A stretch of 64,000 bases of DNA from Acidobacteriota bacterium (GCA_019244185.1 JAFATB010000010.1:1-64000), one strand, 5' to 3'. Shown: positions 8,428-18,698, numbered from the stretch's first letter. The notes: generated by a model from the letters alone, not told the origin. Numbers and translations are program-made.

Positions 8428-9330
8428 GTGACCAACGAGATCGGCTCTTTCCTCGACTACCTGACGTACGAGCGGAACGTCTCGCCGAACACGATTTCCG
8501 CGTATCGCGACGATCTCGAATCGTTCGTCTCCTTCCTCTGCAACGACTACTTCACGATGGGCCGCGATCAGCTCGACTTAGGCCGCGTCGATCACCTGAC
8601 CGTCCGCTCGTATCTCGCGCATCTCGCGCGCCGCAAGCTCGCGCGGACGTCGATCGCGCGCCACCTCTCCGCGCTGCGCTCGTTCTTCAAGTTCCTCGTG
8701 CGCGACGGCAGCGTCGCCGCGAATCCCGCGCGCGCCGTCGCGACGCCGAAGAAGGAGAAGCATCTGCCCGTGGTCATGCAGCCGTCCGACGTCGCGCTGC
8801 TGCTCGAACAGCCGGACGCGTCGATGCCCCTCGGCGCGCGCGACGCGGCATACCTCGAGCTGCTCTACGCGTCCGGTCTGCGCATCAGCGAGCTGACCGG
8901 CATCGACATCGACGATCTCGAACTGCGCGCGCGTCTGGTGAAGGTGCACGGCAAAGGCTCGAAAGAGCGCATCGTTCCGTTCGGCACGAAGGCGGAAGCG
9001 GCGCTGCGCGCGTGGCTCGCCGTGCGCGGCGATCTCGTGCACGATCCGGAAGAGCAGGCCGTGTTCGTCAACTATCGCGGCCAGCGCATCACCACGCGCA
9101 GCGTGCGTCGGCTCTTCGACGGCTACGTCCGCGCGGCCGCATTGCAGAGCGGCGTCTCGCCGCACACGCTGCGGCATTCGTTCGCGACGCATCTCCTGAA
9201 CGCCGGCGCCGACCTGCGCGGAATTCAGGAACTGCTCGGGCACTCGTCGCTGTCGACGACCCAGAAGTACACGCATCTCAACGACTGGCAGTTGATGGCT
9301 GTTTACAAGAAGGCACATCCGCGCGCCTGA
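8428..9330 (+). CDS. xerC: Tyrosine recombinase XerC
   Basis: LYASGLRISEL, GKGSKER, HTLRHSFATHLL, LLGH..LSTTQKY catalytic residues; 300 aa, no mobile-element context. Confidence 0.88.
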   Translation: MTNEIGSFLDYLTYERNVSPNTISAYRDDLESFVSFLCNDYFTMGRDQLDLGRVDHLTVRSYLAHLARRKLARTSIARHLSALRSFFKFLVRDGSVAANPARAVATPKKEKHLPVVMQPSDVALLLEQPDASMPLGARDAAYLELLYASGLRISELTGIDIDDLELRARLVKVHGKGSKERIVPFGTKAEAALRAWLAVRGDLVHDPEEQAVFVNYRGQRITTRSVRRLFDGYVRAAALQSGVSPHTLRHSFATHLLNAGADLRGIQELLGHSSLSTTQKYTHLNDWQLMAVYKKAHPRA

Positions 9331-9353
9331 CTCGCGGCCATAGAATCGAGCGC

Positions 9354-11192
9354 GTGATCCGCGCGATCGTCCACCACGGCTTCCTCGGCGAAGCGATCGA
9401 ATACTTCGCCGTCGTCGTCGGTCCGGACGTCGACCGCCGCTTCTTCTTCGAGCAGATCAAGTCCGCGCGCGGCGACGTCGTGCGCTACTTCGGCGGCAAC
9501 TCGGAGATCGTCCTCAATCCCGAGGGCGTGCGCTTTCGCGGGAACGGCGGCATGTTCGGCGAGTACATGTTCGGCGGGCATCTCCCCGTCGGCGATCTGC
9601 TCAACGAGGAAGTCGTCAACCGCCTCGTTCTCTTCGGCACGACCATCGATCCGCGCTCGCACGAGCTGCGCTTCACGCCGAACACGGAAGGCTTCGAGCG
9701 GTGGGAGAACCTCTTCCTGCAGGGCAACGCCGTCGCGAATCATTTCTTCTTCGTCGACGACCGCAAGCGTCTGCCCGACGTCGGCGACCGTCAGGAGAAG
9801 ACGCTCAAGAGCACGGGCAAGCTGCTCAAGCGCTCGCGCAAAGTCGGCGCGGGGCAGTTCCTCGCGCTCGCGCACGAGATGCTCGACGCGCTCGGCGAGC
9901 CGGAGACGACGCTGGTCATCGTGCGCGTCGTGCATCGCGCCAATCAGCGGCTCGCGGAGCTGTGCCGCAATGCATACGCGGCGTCGCAGTCGCTCGACGA
10001 CGTTGCGAGCGCGCTCGCCGACGAGGCCATCGAGCCGTATCAGCGCGAGCGCATCCAGATCGACGTCATCTATCACCATCGCGACAACCAGGAGCTCATC
10101 GACGAGTACAAACGCATCCTCGCGTCGTGCGCCGGCTCGACCATCGACTCGTCGGCGCGGGCGCGGCTCATGCGCCTGCGCACGCTCTCGCTGCGCAACG
10201 AAGTGCCGCTCTCGATCTTCGACACGCTCGAAGAGATCGTGTTGCAGGAGCCGCGCGCGGTCGTTCGGAAAGAAGACGAGGCCGATTACATCCAGTCCAC
10301 GCGCGAGATCCTCGGCGGCTTCCTCCTCGGTCGCAACATCACCCGCAAGCTCTCCTCGCTCGATCTCGTGCAGCTGATGGAGAACAAGCAGCGCGCCGCC
10401 GCGATGCGCGACCAGACGTTCGAGGAGGTGCTGCTCGAGACCGGCCGCCTCATCGACGAGATCGGCCGCGAGGAAGAGGATTACGAACGCCTCGAATCGT
10501 TCGGCGAGCTGGTGACGCTCTTCGACCGCATCGATCACACCACGACGCTGGTCAACAAGCTCGCCTTCATGGACGACGTCGAGCTGTCGCCCGAACAGGT
10601 GCGGTCGCTGCTCGGCAACATGCAGGTCTTCGAGAAGCTGCGTCGCGGCCTCTTTCAGCAGCTCTTCATCGATCCGGTCGTGAACAACGAGTACGCGCTC
10701 GCCTACGGCAAGAAGAAGCTCTACGCGCTGACGCTCGGCCTGATCTCGATCGAGAACAACGAGGAGTCGATCGCCGGCGTGGTCGACGCGATCGTCTCGA
10801 TCAACCGCCACGAGCGCGCGTACTTTGCCGCGTACAACCTCGCGCGCCGGCGCATGGCGAACTTCTATCTCGAGCTCAACACCGCCGAAGGACGCGAGAC
10901 GTTCCGCCGCGAGATCCGCGCCGAGATCACGCACGATCCCGCGCTGCGCGACCTGCACGACTTCATCAACGAGTCGCTGCTCGAGGAAGTGATCACGAAG
11001 ATCCGCCTCGAGGCCTTCTACATCAACCAGCTGCTGCCGCGCATCGTCGAAGAGCACGATCCGAAGCTGCGCAACGACTTCCTGTCGAACTCCGGTCTCG
11101 ATCGCTTCCAGGTCGAAGAGCTCGAGCGCGAGTACTTCGAGATGCGCGCGTTCCCGCCGCAGCTGCTCGATGTGATCCAGCGGCCCGCGTAG
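9354..11192 (+). CDS. Conserved hypothetical protein resembling the TIGR04442 family
   Basis: GTG start after a TAGAAT box; N-terminal GVRFRGNGGMFGEYMFG...NRLVLFG recalled as TIGR04442-like; mostly helical, ~612 aa. Confidence 0.6.
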   Translation: MIRAIVHHGFLGEAIEYFAVVVGPDVDRRFFFEQIKSARGDVVRYFGGNSEIVLNPEGVRFRGNGGMFGEYMFGGHLPVGDLLNEEVVNRLVLFGTTIDPRSHELRFTPNTEGFERWENLFLQGNAVANHFFFVDDRKRLPDVGDRQEKTLKSTGKLLKRSRKVGAGQFLALAHEMLDALGEPETTLVIVRVVHRANQRLAELCRNAYAASQSLDDVASALADEAIEPYQRERIQIDVIYHHRDNQELIDEYKRILASCAGSTIDSSARARLMRLRTLSLRNEVPLSIFDTLEEIVLQEPRAVVRKEDEADYIQSTREILGGFLLGRNITRKLSSLDLVQLMENKQRAAAMRDQTFEEVLLETGRLIDEIGREEEDYERLESFGELVTLFDRIDHTTTLVNKLAFMDDVELSPEQVRSLLGNMQVFEKLRRGLFQQLFIDPVVNNEYALAYGKKKLYALTLGLISIENNEESIAGVVDAIVSINRHERAYFAAYNLARRRMANFYLELNTAEGRETFRREIRAEITHDPALRDLHDFINESLLEEVITKIRLEAFYINQLLPRIVEEHDPKLRNDFLSNSGLDRFQVEELEREYFEMRAFPPQLLDVIQRPA

Positions 11193-11293: not shown

Positions 11294-12211
11294 ATGCGAA
11301 ACGCCCTCCTCGCCTTCGTTCTGCTGCTCGTCGCCGGCGTCGCCGCGGCCGCCACGCCGCGCGACGCGCTGCTCGTCGACACCGCCTGGCTCAAACAACA
11401 TCTGCACGATCGCAACCTCGTGCTACTGCAGGTCGGCGACCAGGCGAGCTTCGACGCCGGCCACATCGCCGGCGCGCGCGGCATCACGCTGAAAGACGTC
11501 TCGGCCGGCGACGGCAACGGAAACGCGCTCTCGCTGGAGATGCCGAATGCCGCGGAGCTGCGCGAGAAGCTCGAGGCGCTCGGCATCTCCGACGACTCGC
11601 GCGTCATCGTGCTGTTCGGCACCGACTGGGTCACGCCGTCGACGCGCGTGCTCTTCACGCTGCAGTACGCCGGCCTCGGCGCGCGCGCGTCGCTGCTCGA
11701 CGGCGGCCTTCCCGCGTGGGTGCGCGCCGGCGGTGCGGTGACGAAGGCGCCGACGCCCGCGAAACGCGGCAAGCTCGCGCCGCTCGCGCTGCAGCCGATC
11801 GTCGTCGACGCCGCGACCGTGCGCGCGCGCCTCGGCACGCCCGGCTACGCGATCGTCGACGGCCGCGCGGCCGCGTTCTATGACGGCGTCGATCACGGCA
11901 TGAACCGCGACGGCAGCATGCATCGGCCCGGACACGTCCACGGCGCGCACAGCATTCCGTTCACCAGCATCGCCAACGACGACCTCATGGTGAAGTCGAC
12001 CGCCGAGCTGCGCGCGCTCTTCGACCGCGCCGGCGTCAAACCGCACGACACCGTGATCGGCTACTGCCACGTCGGCATGCAGACCACGGCCATGCTGCTC
12101 GCCGCGCGCATCCTCGATCATCCCGTGCTGCTCTACGACGGCTCGTTTCAGGACTGGTCGGGCCACGCGGATTACCCCGTCGACAACCCGAGCGAAGGCA
12201 GCGCGAAATGA
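11294..12211 (+). CDS. Exported tandem-domain rhodanese/sulfurtransferase
   Basis: Signal peptide MRNALLAFVLLLVAGVAAAA; GHIAGA, LLDGGLPAW, active-site YCHVGMQT, LYDGSFQDW. Confidence 0.9.
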   Translation: MRNALLAFVLLLVAGVAAAATPRDALLVDTAWLKQHLHDRNLVLLQVGDQASFDAGHIAGARGITLKDVSAGDGNGNALSLEMPNAAELREKLEALGISDDSRVIVLFGTDWVTPSTRVLFTLQYAGLGARASLLDGGLPAWVRAGGAVTKAPTPAKRGKLAPLALQPIVVDAATVRARLGTPGYAIVDGRAAAFYDGVDHGMNRDGSMHRPGHVHGAHSIPFTSIANDDLMVKSTAELRALFDRAGVKPHDTVIGYCHVGMQTTAMLLAARILDHPVLLYDGSFQDWSGHADYPVDNPSEGSAK

Positions 12212-12783
12212 GCGGCGCGCCGCTCGCGGCCGACGACGTGCGTGAGGTGGATCGCGCTGCGTCGTCGCACGTGCAAGTGACGCGCGCGTACGCCGATCCA
12301 TACGTCGCCGGCGTCGCGCTCGGACTCGTGCTCCTCGCCGCCTTCGTCGTGATGGGCCGTGGCCTCGGCGCGTCCGGCGCCTTCGCATCGAGCGCCGCGG
12401 GAGTCGTTTCCGCGATCGCGCCGCGACGCGCCGCGACGAACGAGTACTTTGCGCGCTATCTCGCCGGCGACGGTCCGTGGCGCGACTGGCTGCTGTTCGA
12501 GTTGATCGGCGTGATCCTCGGCGGCTTTTTCCCGAGCATCCTTGCCGGCCGCTTCCGCTTCGAGATCGCGCGCGGCCCGCGCCTCGCGCGCACACCGCGA
12601 CTCGCGCTCGCCCTCGCCGGCGGCGCGCTGATGGGCACCGGCGCCGTCCTCGCGCGCGGCTGCACGAGCGGCCTCGCCCTCACCGGCGGCGCGCTGCTCT
12701 CGGTCGGCAGCTGGCTCTTCATCGCCGTCGCGTTCGCGAGCGCGTTCGCCGTCGCGCCGCTCGTGCGGAAGGCGTGGCGATGA
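12208..12783 (+). CDS. YeeE/YedE family sulfur-compound transporter subunit
   Basis: Hydrophobic; PYVAGVALG, GRGLGASG, ARGCTSG conserved Cys motif. Confidence 0.85.
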   Translation: MSGAPLAADDVREVDRAASSHVQVTRAYADPYVAGVALGLVLLAAFVVMGRGLGASGAFASSAAGVVSAIAPRRAATNEYFARYLAGDGPWRDWLLFELIGVILGGFFPSILAGRFRFEIARGPRLARTPRLALALAGGALMGTGAVLARGCTSGLALTGGALLSVGSWLFIAVAFASAFAVAPLVRKAWR

Positions 12784-13361
12784 CCGCGCCGCTCGTCGAC
12801 TTCGCCGCCTTTAGCGCCGCGTCGCAACTCGCCATCGCCGTCTTCATCGGCCTCGCCTTTGGCTTCGCGCTCGAACGCGCCGGCCTCGGCGACGCGCGCA
12901 AGCTCGCGGGCCAGTTCTATGTCACCGACTTCACCGTCCTGAAAGTGATGTTCAGCGCGATCGTGACGGCGATGCTCGGCGCGTACTGGCTGGCGCGTCT
13001 CGGCGTCCTCGACCTCGCGCGCGTGTTCGTGCCGGAGACGTACGTCCTGCCGCAGCTCGCCGGCGGCGCGCTCTTCGGCATCGGCTTCGTGCTGGCCGGA
13101 CTCTGTCCCGGCACCTCGTGTGTCGCCGCCGCGACCGGCCGCGGCGACGGCGCGCTGACCGTCGTCGGCATGTTCGCGGGCGTCCTCGCCACCGGCCTCG
13201 CGTTCGCACCGCTGCGCGCGTTCTACGCGAGCACCGCGCGCGGCAGCCTCACGTTGCCGCAACTGCTCGACCTGCCGTACGGCGTCGTCGTCTGCGCGAT
13301 CGTCGCGATCGCGCTCGCCGTCTTCCGCATCGTCGAACGCTGGGAGCGACGCGCGGCATGA
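12780..13361 (+). CDS. YeeE/YedE family sulfur-compound transporter subunit 2
   Basis: GFALERAG, DFTVLKVMFSAI, GLCPGT Cys motif; ATGA overlap. Confidence 0.85.
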   Translation: MTAPLVDFAAFSAASQLAIAVFIGLAFGFALERAGLGDARKLAGQFYVTDFTVLKVMFSAIVTAMLGAYWLARLGVLDLARVFVPETYVLPQLAGGALFGIGFVLAGLCPGTSCVAAATGRGDGALTVVGMFAGVLATGLAFAPLRAFYASTARGSLTLPQLLDLPYGVVVCAIVAIALAVFRIVERWERRAA

Positions 13362-13903
13362 ATCGGACGCTCGCGATCGCGGCTCTCGTCCTCGGTGCGC
13401 TCGCCGCGATCGGCGGCAGTCCGTATCGCGCCCAGCACGCGAACGTCGACGCCGCGCGCCTCGCGCGCGCGATCGCGCACGAGGACGATCACGTGACCGC
13501 ACTCGAACTCGCGGAGTGGATCCGCGATCGCAAGCCGCGCCTGCGCATCATCGATCTCCGCTCCGAACGCGAGTTCGCGACGTATCACCTGCCGCGCGCC
13601 GAGCGCGTGCCGATCGAAGCAATTCCGTCGACGCCGTTCGCGCGCGACGAAACGCTCGTCCTGATCTCCGACGGCGGCGCGCATGCGGCGCAGGCGTGGG
13701 TGCTCCTGCAGTCGCTCGGCTACCGCGACGTCTACTTCCTCCGCGGCGGCCTCGGCGAATGGCTGGACGACGTGATGTCGCCGGCGAAGCCGAGCGATCT
13801 CACGCGCTACTTCGGCGGCGTTCCGCGCGCGACCGGCGACGAAGCGGCCTACGGTGGCGGCACGAGCGCCGCCGTGAAGGCGATGCGGAGACGCGGATGT
13901 TGA
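13358..13903 (+). CDS. Membrane-anchored rhodanese-like protein lacking the catalytic Cys, ending in Gly-Cys
   Basis: N-terminal hydrophobic segment; IIDLR..EF..YHLPRA, YFLRGGLGEW; active-site loop ISDGG; C-terminus RRRGC*. Confidence 0.8.
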   Translation: MNRTLAIAALVLGALAAIGGSPYRAQHANVDAARLARAIAHEDDHVTALELAEWIRDRKPRLRIIDLRSEREFATYHLPRAERVPIEAIPSTPFARDETLVLISDGGAHAAQAWVLLQSLGYRDVYFLRGGLGEWLDDVMSPAKPSDLTRYFGGVPRATGDEAAYGGGTSAAVKAMRRRGC

Positions 13904-15219
13904 CGCTCGCGGTCGACACGCGTTCGCGCGATGCCGCGTTCTTCGCCGGCCTGCGCGCCCGCGAGTTCGCGCGGCTCGACGCGCAGCGGCTCGCGTATCT
14001 CGACTACACCGGCAGCGCGCTGTACGCGGAGTCGCAGCTCTACGCGCATCACGCACTGCTGCGGAGAGGCATCTTCGGCAACCCGCACTCCGACTCCGCG
14101 CCGTCGCGCGCGAGCACGGACGTCATCGATGCGGCGCGGCGCCGCGTGCTGCGGCACTTCGACGTCGACGAGCGCACGCACGCCGTCATCTTCACCGCGA
14201 ACACCAGCGCGGCCGTGAAGCTCGTCGCCGAGAGCTATCCGTTCGATGCGTCGACGTCGCTCGTGCTGTCGTCCGACAACCACAACTCCGTCCTCGGCAT
14301 CCGCGAGTACGCCGCGCGCGCCGGCGCCGCCGTGCACGCCATCGCGCTCGACGAAGAGCTGCGCCTGCGCGACGCACGCGCGACGCTCGCGGCTGCGAAG
14401 CGCGGCCTCTTCGCGTTCCCCGCGCAGTCGAATTTCTCCGGCGTGCGTCATCCGCTGGCACTCGTGAGCGACGCGCATCGTCTCGGCTTCGACGTGCTGC
14501 TCGACGCCGCCGCGTACGTGCCGAGCCACGCGCTCAGCCTTCGCGACGTGCCGGCGGATTTCACGGCGCTGTCGTTCTACAAACTCTTCGGCTATCCGAC
14601 CGGCCTCGGCGCGCTCATCGCGCGGCGCGACGCGCTCGCGAAACTGCGCCGCCCGTGGTTCGCCGGCGGCACGGTGCTCTTCGCGTCCGTCGCCGCGAAC
14701 ACGCATCGGCTGCGTCCCGGTCACGAGGCGTTCGAAGACGGCACGCCCGACTTTCTCAACATCGCCGCGCTCGATGCCGGCTTCGATCTGCTCGACGGCG
14801 CCGGGATGCCGCGCATCGCCGTGCACGTCGCGCATCTCACCGAACTGCTGCTCGATGGTCTGCTCGCGTTGCACAACGTTCGCGTGTATGGCCCGCGCGA
14901 TCTCACTGCGCGCGGCGGCACCATCGCGTTCAACATCCGCGGCGTGCCGTACTGGGACGTCGAAGCGTACGCGCGCGAGCGCGGCGTGGCCCTGCGCGGC
15001 GGCTGCTTCTGCAATCCCGGCGCATCCGAGGCGGCGTTTGGAATCGAAACGTCGCGCTTGCGCGGTTGCCTCGAAACGCTCGGCGCCGACTTCACTCCGC
15101 AGCGACTGGCCGCGTGCGCCGGCACCGTCGTCGGCGCCGTTCGTGCGTCGCTCGGACTGGCGAACAACGAAGCCGACGTCGCGCGCGCGCTCGACGTCAT
15201 CGCCTCGCTGTCGCGCTGA
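13897..15219 (+). CDS. Class V PLP enzyme, molybdenum-cofactor-sulfurase-like cysteine desulfurase
   Basis: YLDYTG, GNPHS, DNHNSV, LLDAA, SFYKLFGYPTGLG (PLP Lys), FEDGT, RGGCFCNPG. Confidence 0.87.
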   Translation: MLTLAVDTRSRDAAFFAGLRAREFARLDAQRLAYLDYTGSALYAESQLYAHHALLRRGIFGNPHSDSAPSRASTDVIDAARRRVLRHFDVDERTHAVIFTANTSAAVKLVAESYPFDASTSLVLSSDNHNSVLGIREYAARAGAAVHAIALDEELRLRDARATLAAAKRGLFAFPAQSNFSGVRHPLALVSDAHRLGFDVLLDAAAYVPSHALSLRDVPADFTALSFYKLFGYPTGLGALIARRDALAKLRRPWFAGGTVLFASVAANTHRLRPGHEAFEDGTPDFLNIAALDAGFDLLDGAGMPRIAVHVAHLTELLLDGLLALHNVRVYGPRDLTARGGTIAFNIRGVPYWDVEAYARERGVALRGGCFCNPGASEAAFGIETSRLRGCLETLGADFTPQRLAACAGTVVGAVRASLGLANNEADVARALDVIASLSR

Positions 15220-15289
15220 CGACGCTTCCGGCACGCGGCCGCTACGCGCGTACAAGACGGCGGGTCGCATCGCGGCTACGCTGGTCGCC

Positions 15290-15919
15290 ATGAAACGACT
15301 GCTCGGCTCCGTTGTGTTTCTGCTGCTGCTTCCGCTGATCGCCACCGCCGCGCCGGCGCCGCAGGATGCGATCGGCACGATCGCATCGCTGTTCACGAAG
15401 TACGACGTCGTCGGCATCCCCGAAGTGCATCGCATGGCCGAGACCCACGTCTTCCTGCGGCAGCTCGTCAGCGATCCGCGCATCACCCGCGTGATCGACG
15501 ACGTCGTGGTGGAGTCGGGCAACGCGCGTTATCAGGAGGTCATGGACCGCTACATCATGGGTGCGGACGTGCCGCTGGCGGAGGTCGAGCCGGCGTGGCG
15601 CGACACCACGATGTTCCTCGTGTGGGACTCGCCGTTGTACCGGCAATTGTTCGAGACCATCCGCAACGTCAACACCACGTTGCCGCGCGCGCATCGCATC
15701 CGCGTGCTCCTCGGCGACCCGCCCATTCCGTGGGAGCAGGTGAAGACCCGCGCGGATTACGAACGCTTCGCCGATCGCGACTTCTCGTATGCCGAGGTGG
15801 TGGATCGCGAGGTGTTCGCCAAACATCACAAGGCGCTGCTCATCGCGGGCGCGATGCACGTGTACGGCATGAGCTTCATCGGCGACCTGGACGACGCGCT
15901 CCGCTGCACGTCGCACTGA
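15290..15919 (+). CDS. Secreted hypothetical protein, EreA/ChaN-like fold, possibly truncated
   Basis: Signal peptide; VVGIPEVH, VVVESG, LLIAGAMH motifs; stops shortly after the last motif. Confidence 0.55.
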   Translation: MKRLLGSVVFLLLLPLIATAAPAPQDAIGTIASLFTKYDVVGIPEVHRMAETHVFLRQLVSDPRITRVIDDVVVESGNARYQEVMDRYIMGADVPLAEVEPAWRDTTMFLVWDSPLYRQLFETIRNVNTTLPRAHRIRVLLGDPPIPWEQVKTRADYERFADRDFSYAEVVDREVFAKHHKALLIAGAMHVYGMSFIGDLDDALRCTSH

Positions 15920-15936
15920 CGCTATGCTGTCGTCCG

Positions 15937-16697
15937 ATGAACGCCATCACCGCGGGCGAGGTGAGCCGGCAGATGACGGCGGGCGATTTTCGCGTCCACA
16001 TCACGCATCATCGCGCCGGCACCGGTCTCCGCCGCCACGATCATGAAGCGGCGTCGCTGCAACTCGTGCTCGGCGGAGGGTTCGAGGAGACGATCGGCTC
16101 CCGCACGTACGACTGCGAAGCCTCCTCGCTCATCTTCAAGCCTGCCGGCGCGCATCATGCCGACCGCTACACGGTGGCCGTCGATGCGGTTCTGATCGAA
16201 CTGCCGCACGCGCCGCACGCGGCGCTGGGTGAGATCGTCGTCCGCCGCGATCGCCGCTGCGTCGACGTCGCGCGTCGCATCGTCGCGAGCTCGATGGCTT
16301 CGCCGCTGGAGCTCGAATCGGAGATCGTCCGCGCGCTTTCGCTCGTCGAACCCGTCCCGTGTGCGCGCGAGCGCAGGCCGGCGTGGCTCGACGACGCGGT
16401 CGACCTCGCCCGCGGAGGCGCCTCGCTCTCGCAGATCGCCGCCGGCGTCGGCCGCCACCGCACGCACGTGGCACGCGCGTTCCGCGAGGCGTTCGGCGTC
16501 TCGGCCGGCGCGTTCGTGCGCGACGAACGGCTGCAGAGCGCGGCGCATCACTTGCGCTTCACCAAACGCGCGCTCCGCGACGTCGCCGCCGAGCACGGCT
16601 TCTTCGACCAGAGCCATTTCACGCGTGCATTCCGCGCGCGCTTCGGCGTCAGTCCCGCGGAGTACCGCGCGGGCATGAACTCTGCGCGGCGATTCGC

Positions 16698-16701
<4 letters not shown>
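15937..16701 (+). CDS. AraC family transcriptional regulator
   Basis: Cupin HDH N-terminus; C-terminal HTH with [29 protein letters not shown]. Confidence 0.88.

Positions 16702-18698
<1,997 letters not shown>

Follow-up and report, generated by a model that had tools for sequence, protein, structure and literature searches.

Gene layout and predicted products

We analyzed a stretch of 64,000 nucleotides from an Acidobacteriota bacterium (GCA_019244185.1, JAFATB010000010.1:1-64000; the whole stretch is referred to as the window), in which five consecutive genes, g1 to g5, occupy positions 11294-15219 on the plus strand. Very likely, the five genes are one operon whose parts act as a single sulfur-trafficking unit, because all five are translationally coupled and because each component keeps one invariant cysteine. 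Its products probably hand sulfur on, one cysteine to the next, through the cell membrane. A first-pass annotation, made from the sequence alone, had described five genes linked by overlapping start and stop codons, and all of them were found where it had placed them. The motifs it had pointed out were also present in the translations, namely CHVGMQ in g1, GCTSG in g2, GLCPGT in g3, and SFYK together with GCFCNPG in g5. The GC content of the window was high, about 0.64-0.72 per 2-kb bin. Going by the names that nearly identical proteins carry, the window belongs to a member of Thermoanaerobaculia. Six DNA sequencing runs are listed as containing the stretch, three of which may be its source, and no RNA run is.

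The first gene, g1 (11294-12211, 305 amino acids), codes for an exported tandem rhodanese that was matched by the Pfam Rhodanese profile in two stretches (76 bits). Two halves of a YeeE/YedE channel follow. The C-terminal half, g2 (12208-12783, 191 amino acids), matched positions 169-309 of the Sulf_transp profile (PF04143) with 80.8 bits, while g3 (12780-13361, 193 amino acids), the N-terminal half with the central helix, matched positions 12-152 with 57.6 bits. Next come g4 (13358-13903, 181 amino acids; Pfam Rhodanese, 54 bits), a membrane-anchored protein with a rhodanese fold, and g5 (13897-15219, 440 amino acids; Pfam Aminotran_5, 169 bits), a class-V pyridoxal phosphate (PLP) enzyme. 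Every one of these Pfam assignments exceeded its curated cut-off, which is 27 bits for Sulf_transp; the cut-offs of NCBIfam equivalog models were reached by none of the five proteins. Four-base ATGA overlaps were observed at the g1/g2, g2/g3 and g3/g4 junctions and a seven-base overlap, GGATGTTGA, at the g4/g5 junction.

The topology that we propose for the five products draws on charge, hydropathy, natural gene fusions and the paper on the YeeE structure. According to that paper, C22 and C91 face the cytoplasm, C293 faces the periplasm, and helix H7 reverses the topology of the two halves; C91 and C293 of StYeeE, which sit on buried loops, are both described as essential (PMC7449682). Judged by its charge distribution and by this structure as far as it is described there (PMC7449682), g2 has four predicted transmembrane helices and both termini in the cytoplasm; it corresponds to helices H8-H13 of full-length YeeE. 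The single cysteine of g2, C152, is located in an RGCTSG loop, is equivalent to StYeeE C293 and was kept in 44 of 44 sequences. This loop would enter from the periplasmic side. The hydropathy profile of g3 showed five hydrophobic segments, which correspond to H1-H7 of YeeE, the fifth one (residues 157-188) corresponding to the YeeE central helix; the C-terminus of g3 is predicted to be cytoplasmic. In the g3 motif CPGTSC, on a loop that would enter from the cytoplasmic side, the first cysteine, C109, is equivalent to StYeeE C91 and was kept in 33 of 34 sequences. As in the positively charged funnel of YeeE, an arginine adjoins the outer cysteine of the channel.

The second cysteine of the CPGTSC motif, C114, had a distribution of its own. 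Among loci that were partly redundant, it was present in all 85 copies of g3 linked to g5 and in none of the 10 two-gene clusters; it was also found in four-gene forms containing g1. We count C114 as support for the linked unit, since it is confined to the clade in which g1 and g5 were acquired as well. The YeeE pair is present in a single copy in the window's own genome.

The N-terminus of g1 resembles a signal peptide, with hydrophobic residues 1-24 and a segment that ends AAA/TP. Comparisons with tandem rhodaneses of known structure (PDB 1uar, 1urh and 1rhd) gave E-values from 1e-21 to 1e-17, and the alignment to 1uar covered residues 25-296, so that g1 is a two-domain rhodanese along its length. 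The sole cysteine of g1, C258, falls in the second domain, in the loop CHVGMQ, and was kept in 27 of 27 homologues. With a two-domain fold and a cysteine at the catalytic position of the C-terminal domain, g1 has the sequence features expected of a tandem rhodanese.

For g4, the earlier description as a membrane-anchored, rhodanese-like protein was borne out in part. We found one N-terminal hydrophobic segment, a predicted transmembrane helix, as well as the rhodanese fold and a conserved RYFGG motif. What did not hold was a catalytic rhodanese, as Ser104 of g4 aligned with the catalytic cysteine of the single-domain rhodanese 3foj. Direct BLASTP comparison of g4 with g1 gave no significant similarity, and the catalytic position was set from the 3foj alignment instead. 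By inspection, none of the 38 relatives of g4 from the fetched loci had a cysteine at the catalytic loop position, and the loop was deleted in several of them.

The only cysteine of g4 is its last residue, Cys181, at the end of a tail that reads ...KAMRRRGC. Relatives from the fetched loci ended in Gly-Cys in 36 of 38 cases (the other two ended in GCAI and SCG), and in an alignment of 28 sequences the only invariant columns were D66 and the terminal cysteine. All 79 complete copies in the 80-locus scan described below terminated in cysteine (71 in GC and 8 in Ser/Ala/Thr-Cys), and the ending was usually Arg-Arg-Arg-Gly-Cys. Another reading, in which the Gly-Cys ending merely results from overlapping the g5 start codon, was rejected, as the ending is kept in loci without g5 (L050-L053, L062, L022 and L023).

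When 1.84 billion representative proteins were searched with a g4 profile, 443 or more clusters (defined at 50% identity) reached E <= 1e-30. Of the 150 top-scoring matches, 122 had at most 300 amino acids, and 103 of these ended in cysteine (84 in GC). Eight more of the best 150 were fusions with a YeeE half (300-450 amino acids), seven of which ended in cysteine, and 20 were longer multi-rhodanese proteins, none of which did. Look-alikes of g4 in the protein atlas, from Gemmatimonadota, Pseudomonadota and Acidobacteriota, were labeled "hypothetical" or "rhodanese family", and YeeE-rhodanese fusions were seen there as well.

Natural fusions of g3 to g4 occurred in two related genomes, with a hydrophobic helix between the parts and the ending GGGC. 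Given the cytoplasmic C-terminus of g3 and the transmembrane helix in the fusion, the g4 domain and its tail should therefore be periplasmic, and proteins of the g3 and g4 types should therefore work in contact. Both g1 and g4 are thus predicted to be periplasmic proteins. By analogy, we read g4 as a putative tethered sulfur carrier, working through its C-terminal cysteine as a swinging arm, rather than as an enzyme. Such a C-terminal cysteine arm recalls SoxY (motif GGCGG) and DsrC. We regard g4 as a previously unnamed kind of protein, belonging to a large family of periplasmic carriers.

The last gene had been likened to molybdenum cofactor (Moco) sulfurases without the MOSC domain, and the comparisons agreed with this. 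The identity of g5 to eukaryotic MOCOS proteins (carriers of PF03473/PF03476) was 35-41% over about 95% of the g5 length (E-values from 1e-63 to 1e-76), compared to 27-31% for SufS-like proteins. Pfam searches found no MOSC or MOSC_N domain in the 440 amino acids of g5, Aminotran_5 being the only family assigned. The important residues of g5 are the PLP lysine K229 (in SFYK), the substrate arginine R367 and the persulfide cysteine C372 (in GGCFCNPG); in the PDB matches K229 and C372 aligned with the PLP lysine and the catalytic cysteine of plastid CpNifS and of SufS. When g5 was aligned with five MOCOS proteins, F227-Y228-K229, R367, G369 and C370 to N373 were invariant, in a loop of the form R(T/G)GCFCNPGA, and g5 ended where the MOCOS linker begins. 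Both C370 and C372 were kept in 29 of 29 sequences; C391 and C407, which are missing from MOCOS, were conserved as well. Against the equivalog models of type II desulfurases g5 scored 156 bits for TIGR01979 (cut-off 475) and 120 bits for NF006791 (cut-off 661).

Based on the catalytic residues that are kept, we predict that g5 is a cytoplasmic MOCOS-type class-V PLP enzyme with an activity like that of cysteine desulfurases. It would still perform PLP chemistry on an amino acid, because K229, R367 and the cysteine loop are all retained, and their retention would be unexpected in an enzyme that served only as an acceptor. No gene for a SufE, SufU or CsdE acceptor was found among the neighbors of the cluster. 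The SufS-like gene of the window's own genome is located on contig C14.

A quick maximum-likelihood search on 62 proteins, with the standalone group sampled from one class, put 35 linked g5 enzymes from three phyla into one clade (support of 95 in the Shimodaira-Hasegawa-like approximate likelihood ratio test, SH-aLRT), sister to 22 standalone enzymes (support 91), with MOCOS as the outgroup. The g5 sequences of Pseudomonadota were nested inside the linked clade, which suggests transfer of the cassette. Bacterial MOCOS-like PLP domains elsewhere were seen in various fusions, with an LmbE deacetylase plus a cyclic-nucleotide-binding domain, a pyridine-nucleotide disulfide oxidoreductase, thioredoxin, a methyltransferase or parts of ATP-binding cassette transporters. 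These fusions hint at broad, unexplored roles for this type of desulfurase.

Distribution of the cluster and its forms

Orthologues of g3, g4 and g5 were found in the same 7 of the 24 other genomes of the genus. Within the genus, the cluster is thus an accessory trait that is acquired or lost as a whole. Three unpublished genomes (G002, G024 and G030) were counted only as non-carriers, while another unpublished genome, G191, supplied the locus L048, a g3-g4 pair without g5, which was used in the survey of module forms, in the analysis of g4 endings, in the g4 alignment and in the C114 count.

When 301 genomes were drawn from the class, a PLP enzyme of the close type (at least 64% identity to g5) was seen in 22 more of them and a fragment in one, and 29 others had a more distant standalone type (47-51%). 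The surroundings of the standalone genes were unrelated in the three loci that were annotated. For 26 relatives with the close type, 21 loci had g1 to g5 complete and in order, four were cut by contig ends and consistent with this order (G004, G009, G214 and G235), and one was degenerate (G148). This last locus, L029 (G148:C210, 8592-10686), is a decayed copy in which only g4 and g5 stand, behind a piece of a rhodanese gene. Of another decayed copy, L044 (G043:C21, 8942-9442), there remain just the final 166 codons of a g5 of the close type.

The first-pass annotation had tied its proposal to conservation of the PLP gene along with the YeeE pair. We observed such conservation in a scan of one genome per species, which was drawn through one g4 sequence pattern and hence covers the nearest g4 subfamily. 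Run with a close g4 alignment, the scan yielded 80 loci, 75 of them evaluable and five not judgeable; in 64 of the 75, g5 directly followed g4, with all five genes in order in 56 loci and the upstream part cut off in eight. The scan shares genomes with the search of relatives, and the two counts are not additive. The 64 linked loci came from Thermoanaerobaculia (17), other Acidobacteriota, including Vicinamibacterales and Bryobacteraceae (9), Gemmatimonadota, including Longimicrobium (28), unlabeled genomes (7) and Pseudomonadota (3). The carriers in Pseudomonadota were two metagenome-assembled genomes, of a Steroidobacteraceae member and of Telluria, and the cultured Asticcacaulis solisilvae BE327. 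In the latter, the cluster is locus L125 on NZ_JAGGMI010000008.1, running from 5126 (g1) to 8958 (g5).

Older forms of the module, with two, three or four genes and no PLP gene, exist. Among the 301 class genomes, 63 had a homologue of g3, and YeeE pairs occur also without g5. The forms make a nested series: g2-g3 alone (L055-L060, L063 and L064), g2-g3-g4 (L050-L054, L061 and, in two copies, L062) and g1-g4 (L045, L047 and L049). No common substitute for g5 was found in the g5-less loci.

Two loci, L022 (G038:C34, 2100-12474) and L023 (G034:C201, 4266-11084), had a PsrABC-like molybdopterin oxidoreductase and a multihaem cytochrome upstream of a YeeE module. Directly after the PsrABC-like enzyme comes the C-terminal YeeE half; next are the N-terminal half, joined to a domain of the g4 type whose last residues are GGGC, a tandem rhodanese and an outer-membrane protein resembling FadL. 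L022 then carries ArsR, a methyltransferase similar to ArsM, a low-molecular-weight phosphatase and an exporter of the TauE type. These genes seem to form a module of the envelope that respires or handles polysulfide or thiosulfate (or arsenic-sulfur or selenium-sulfur species).

No conserved flanking gene was common to most of the loci, even within the genus. In 20 fetched loci, including those of Asticcacaulis and Telluria (this window is not among them), two genes adjoin g1, one for a histidine kinase of the LytS type (PF06580) and one for a LytTR response regulator. These loci, from several phyla, include L033 (4995-7152), L014, L015, L040, L042, L046, L065, L108, L111, L116, L125, L127, L131, L138 and L143. 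The pair is likely a dedicated regulator of the operon in those genomes. Directly upstream of the operon in the window, an open reading frame at 9330-11189 (plus strand, about 620 amino acids as translated) matched no Pfam family and was not kept beside the cluster in relatives. Downstream, the plus-strand stretch 15287-18695 codes for a small exported protein, whose ChaN/Tiki-like match is weak and under the cut-off, for a regulator of the AraC family and for a protein with a DUF255 thioredoxin domain; none of these genes was conserved beside the cluster elsewhere, except for weak AraC-type matches in two loci.

Proposed direction of sulfur transfer

We favor, with a probability of roughly 0.45, the reading in which sulfane sulfur derived from cysteine is delivered outward through a five-protein persulfide relay. 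We infer each transfer step, the direction and the acceptor. In the cytoplasm, g5 would make a persulfide on Cys372 from free L-cysteine. The split YeeE channel would take up the sulfur at the g3 CPGTSC loop, facing the cytoplasm, and release it at the g2 RGCTSG loop, facing the periplasm. Tethered beside the channel, g4 would offer its free C-terminal cysteine on a basic flexible tail, as a swinging arm of the SoxY or DsrC type; with the persulfide beside it, the carboxylate at the chain end could mimic thiosulfate, which the positively charged funnel binds in YeeE. The soluble exported rhodanese g1 would be catalytically competent through Cys258. The sulfur path would then lead from g5 to g3, g2, g4 and g1, and further to periplasmic acceptors, which may be cyanide, sulfite, thiols or proteins. 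The more specific picture of a YeeE channel running in reverse, where g5 docks at the cytoplasmic face and the sulfur goes outward to a tethered carrier with a C-terminal cysteine and then to an exported rhodanese, is a tentative one.

Persulfide exchange between thiols is close to neutral in energy, so the source and the sink set the direction. The outward direction is favored because the desulfurase step is the only one that is effectively irreversible, and because g5 keeps its PLP residues in three phyla and enzymes of its type donate sulfur, rhodaneses being among the recipients. For example, the hand-over of a persulfide from the MOCOS-type desulfurase ABA3 to the rhodanese STR18 is described, in the part of the report that deals with the pair, as experimentally shown in vitro and in planta (PMC8931425). 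We also count for the outward relay the lack of an inner-face partner of the TusA/YeeD type. Such a partner had been noted as missing from the cluster, and the observation now extends to the whole genome (98.9% complete), where the PF01206 profile had no match; the same profile matched 10 of 14 control genomes.

On the other hand, several points weigh against this reading. Outward flow through the YeeE fold is without precedent, and the family members characterized to date are all importers, TsuA of thiosulfate and SoxT1A of sulfane sulfur (PMC11582611, PMC7449682). The g5-less forms were seen in 11 of the 75 evaluable scan loci, where the contig continues, and in the fetched loci L045, L047 and L049-L064. 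The channel together with g4, with or without g1, thus occurs in many genomes without g5, and therefore this core works without a dedicated desulfurase. No gene for a periplasmic acceptor is encoded nearby. Contact of g5 with the channel belongs to the proposal only, and a prediction of complexes of g5 with g2 and g3 (each from an alignment of 29 rows, controls not run) gave a score of 0.00, which weighs neither in favor of binding nor against it. The scan is bound to one g4 pattern and the tree to a quick search with one class for the standalone group, as stated above. Finally, with two CysK proteins and no sulfite reductase or adenylylsulfate/phosphoadenylylsulfate (APS/PAPS) reductase domains in the genome, import of reduced sulfur would make physiological sense.

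Import is indeed the strongest competitor, and we see it as a real possibility, if a less probable one. Here, g1 would strip sulfane sulfur from thiosulfate or polysulfide, sulfite would stay outside, and g1 would load the g4 cysteine, which in turn would feed the YeeE cysteines, from which the sulfur would reach the cytoplasm. In one variant, g5 as the inner-face partner would supply the same persulfide pool in parallel and under shared regulation; in another, it would be a persulfide-using PLP enzyme that builds cysteine from activated serine. SepCysS makes cysteine from activated serine in this manner, using a persulfide. No match of g5 to SepCysS structures was detectable among 55 PDB matches, which argues against the latter variant, while the extra conserved cysteines C391 and C407, which MOCOS lacks, are in favor of import. 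So are the common g5-less forms, the behavior of the characterized YeeE relatives and the proposal, made in the available portion of PMC11582611 for SoxY and SoxT1A, that a carrier with a C-terminal cysteine feeds a YeeE-like channel. A desulfurase, however, is a sulfur donor, and its reversal, starting from alanine, would be chemically unfavorable; moreover, the full conservation of the PLP site would go unexplained if g5 were a passive acceptor.

The sulfur metabolism of the host bears on import from both sides. The own genome had no NIR_SIR and no PAPS_reduct domain and had two CysK proteins above cut-off, so it is apparently unable to reduce either sulfate or sulfite and must rely on sulfur in reduced or organic form, the only sulfur it could use. 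In the lineage of the window's genome as such, sulfate assimilation seems impossible. Still, NIR_SIR was missing in 22 of 24 genomes of the genus irrespective of the cluster. It was missing in 7 of 8 carriers and in 15 of 17 non-carriers of the genus, which does not discriminate between them, and in other lineages NIR_SIR genes are present in 4 of the 5 carriers. The loss of NIR_SIR does not track the cluster, and therefore the lack of sulfate reduction does not explain it. A search for NosZ gave no match, the control genomes being likewise without a match.

A selenium pathway, with a YedE-like channel, g5 as a selenocysteine lyase and the rhodaneses carrying perselenide for selenite or tellurite detoxification or for selenium supply, appears unlikely. 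Matches in its favor were all far below cut-off: g3 scored 36.8 bits (cut-off 200) for the YedE selenium transporter TIGR04112, g2 matched YedE/FdhT weakly, and g1 scored 58 bits (cut-off 200) for ExtH, the rhodanese of the selenite/tellurite operon. SufS-type enzymes also cleave selenocysteine, according to the molecule names of the PDB matches, and the own genome does use selenium, since its SelD (C6:611614-612546, minus strand) has one in-frame TGA and is itself a selenoprotein, as in most of the relatives searched. SelD, however, was found in 40 of 41 relatives with or without the cluster, which itself is present in 8 of 25 genomes of the genus, so there is no signal of co-occurrence. Moreover, no selD, yedF or selenoprotein gene is located in or next to the cluster (selD is on another contig), and none of g1 to g5 has an in-frame TGA.

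Least probable of all is Moco sulfuration, in which g5 would sulfurate the cofactor for enzymes belonging to the xanthine oxidase family and merely share a transcript with an unrelated thiosulfate importer: the identity of g5 to the NifS domains of MOCOS, three separate MOSC-domain genes elsewhere in the own genome and the molybdopterin oxidoreductase beside the YeeE pair in two related genomes speak for it, whereas the linked g5 enzymes form their own clade, kept beside g4 across three phyla, their standalone paralogues are the natural housekeeping candidates, and the cluster has no MOSC, XdhC or molybdoenzyme gene.

The passage of sulfane sulfur through the cytoplasmic membrane is an open question, for which the YeeE family is the leading candidate route, with partners known for two systems only, YeeD in one and, as a proposal, SoxYZ in the other. 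The operon is a compact, self-contained five-gene version of a YeeE system in which both ends of the path are encoded. Abundant soil bacteria of no fewer than three phyla have kept it, as has an isolate that grows in culture and is tractable. The invariant C-terminal cysteine of g4 suggests a way for a protein to offer sulfur to the YeeE funnel, and the cluster gives a first context for bacterial MOCOS-like desulfurases without MOSC. If the outward reading is true, the operon would be the first route for export of protein-bound persulfide across a bacterial membrane, supplying the periplasm with reactive sulfur for detoxification of cyanide or sulfite, formation of metal sulfides, or sulfuration of proteins or cofactors. 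If the flow is inward, this route would draw on the reduced half of thiosulfate alone, a good fit for organisms that cannot reduce sulfite. In the literature searched (subscription journals being largely outside it and supplements excluded), we found no paper that describes the operon; only reviews were returned.

Comparison with known systems

The closest reference is the TsuA/YeeE-TsuB/YeeD system of E. coli and Spirochaeta thermophila. Its channel belongs to the same fold family, PF04143, and the cysteines reported as essential in the structural part of the paper, C91 and C293, are kept as C109 of g3 and C152 of g2; a positively charged funnel with an arginine beside the outer cysteine, as described there, is common to both (PMC7449682). 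TsuA/YeeE is one polypeptide with nine transmembrane helices, while here we see two genes, first the C-terminal half and then the N-terminal half. The equivalent of C22 is missing here, with the clade-specific C114 in its place, and instead of YeeD, absent from both the cluster and the genome, there are periplasmic partners and a PLP enzyme. The best scores for the TsuA equivalog models were 42.2 bits (cut-off 400) and 23.6 bits (cut-off 645).

The channel is likewise divided between two half-size genes in PmpAB of Serratia and its relatives, where, in the section of PMC11582611 on these proteins, PmpA is the C-terminal half and PmpB the N-terminal half, with one conserved cysteine each. By the same account, PmpA and PmpB have about 130 amino acids and four helices, without a central helix (PMC11582611), compared to 191 and 193 amino acids for g2 and g3 and a fifth helix in g3. 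The partners of PmpAB differ from g1, g4 and g5; this comparison draws on the published description.

For g4, the nearest parallel is SoxYZ with SoxT1A in Hyphomicrobium denitrificans, where a periplasmic carrier, with its cysteine on a flexible C-terminal arm, is put forward in the part of PMC11582611 devoted to it as the donor to the cysteines of a YeeE-like channel. The present locus has no sox genes; its carrier is a membrane-anchored rhodanese fold in which the cysteine is the very last residue, and the cytoplasmic partner would be a desulfurase and not Rhd442, DsrE3C or sHdr. A further parallel is offered by Sud with the polysulfide reductase Psr of Wolinella and by the rhodanese ExtH of the Geobacter ext cluster; here, too, rhodanese-type proteins of the periplasm deal with sulfane sulfur (or selenium) at the membrane's outer face. 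Directly before a YeeE pair with fused g4, two of the related genomes have a PsrABC-like enzyme. The window itself has neither a molybdoenzyme nor a cytochrome, and its match to ExtH, as noted, was far below cut-off.

As for g5, the fold and the catalytic layout are those of SufS-SufE and CsdA-CsdE, with the g5 cysteine aligned to the catalytic cysteine of SufS. Still, the identity to these desulfurases was low, as given above, and the cluster has no SufE, CsdE or SufU. The MOCOS/ABA3 proteins are closer, with SFYK and the R(T/G)GCFCNPGA loop invariant between them and g5; they differ in having MOSC and in lacking the two extra conserved cysteines. Finally, in comparison with ABA3 and STR18, the rhodanese-type partners of g5 would be located across the membrane, and hence the channel must mediate the transfer.

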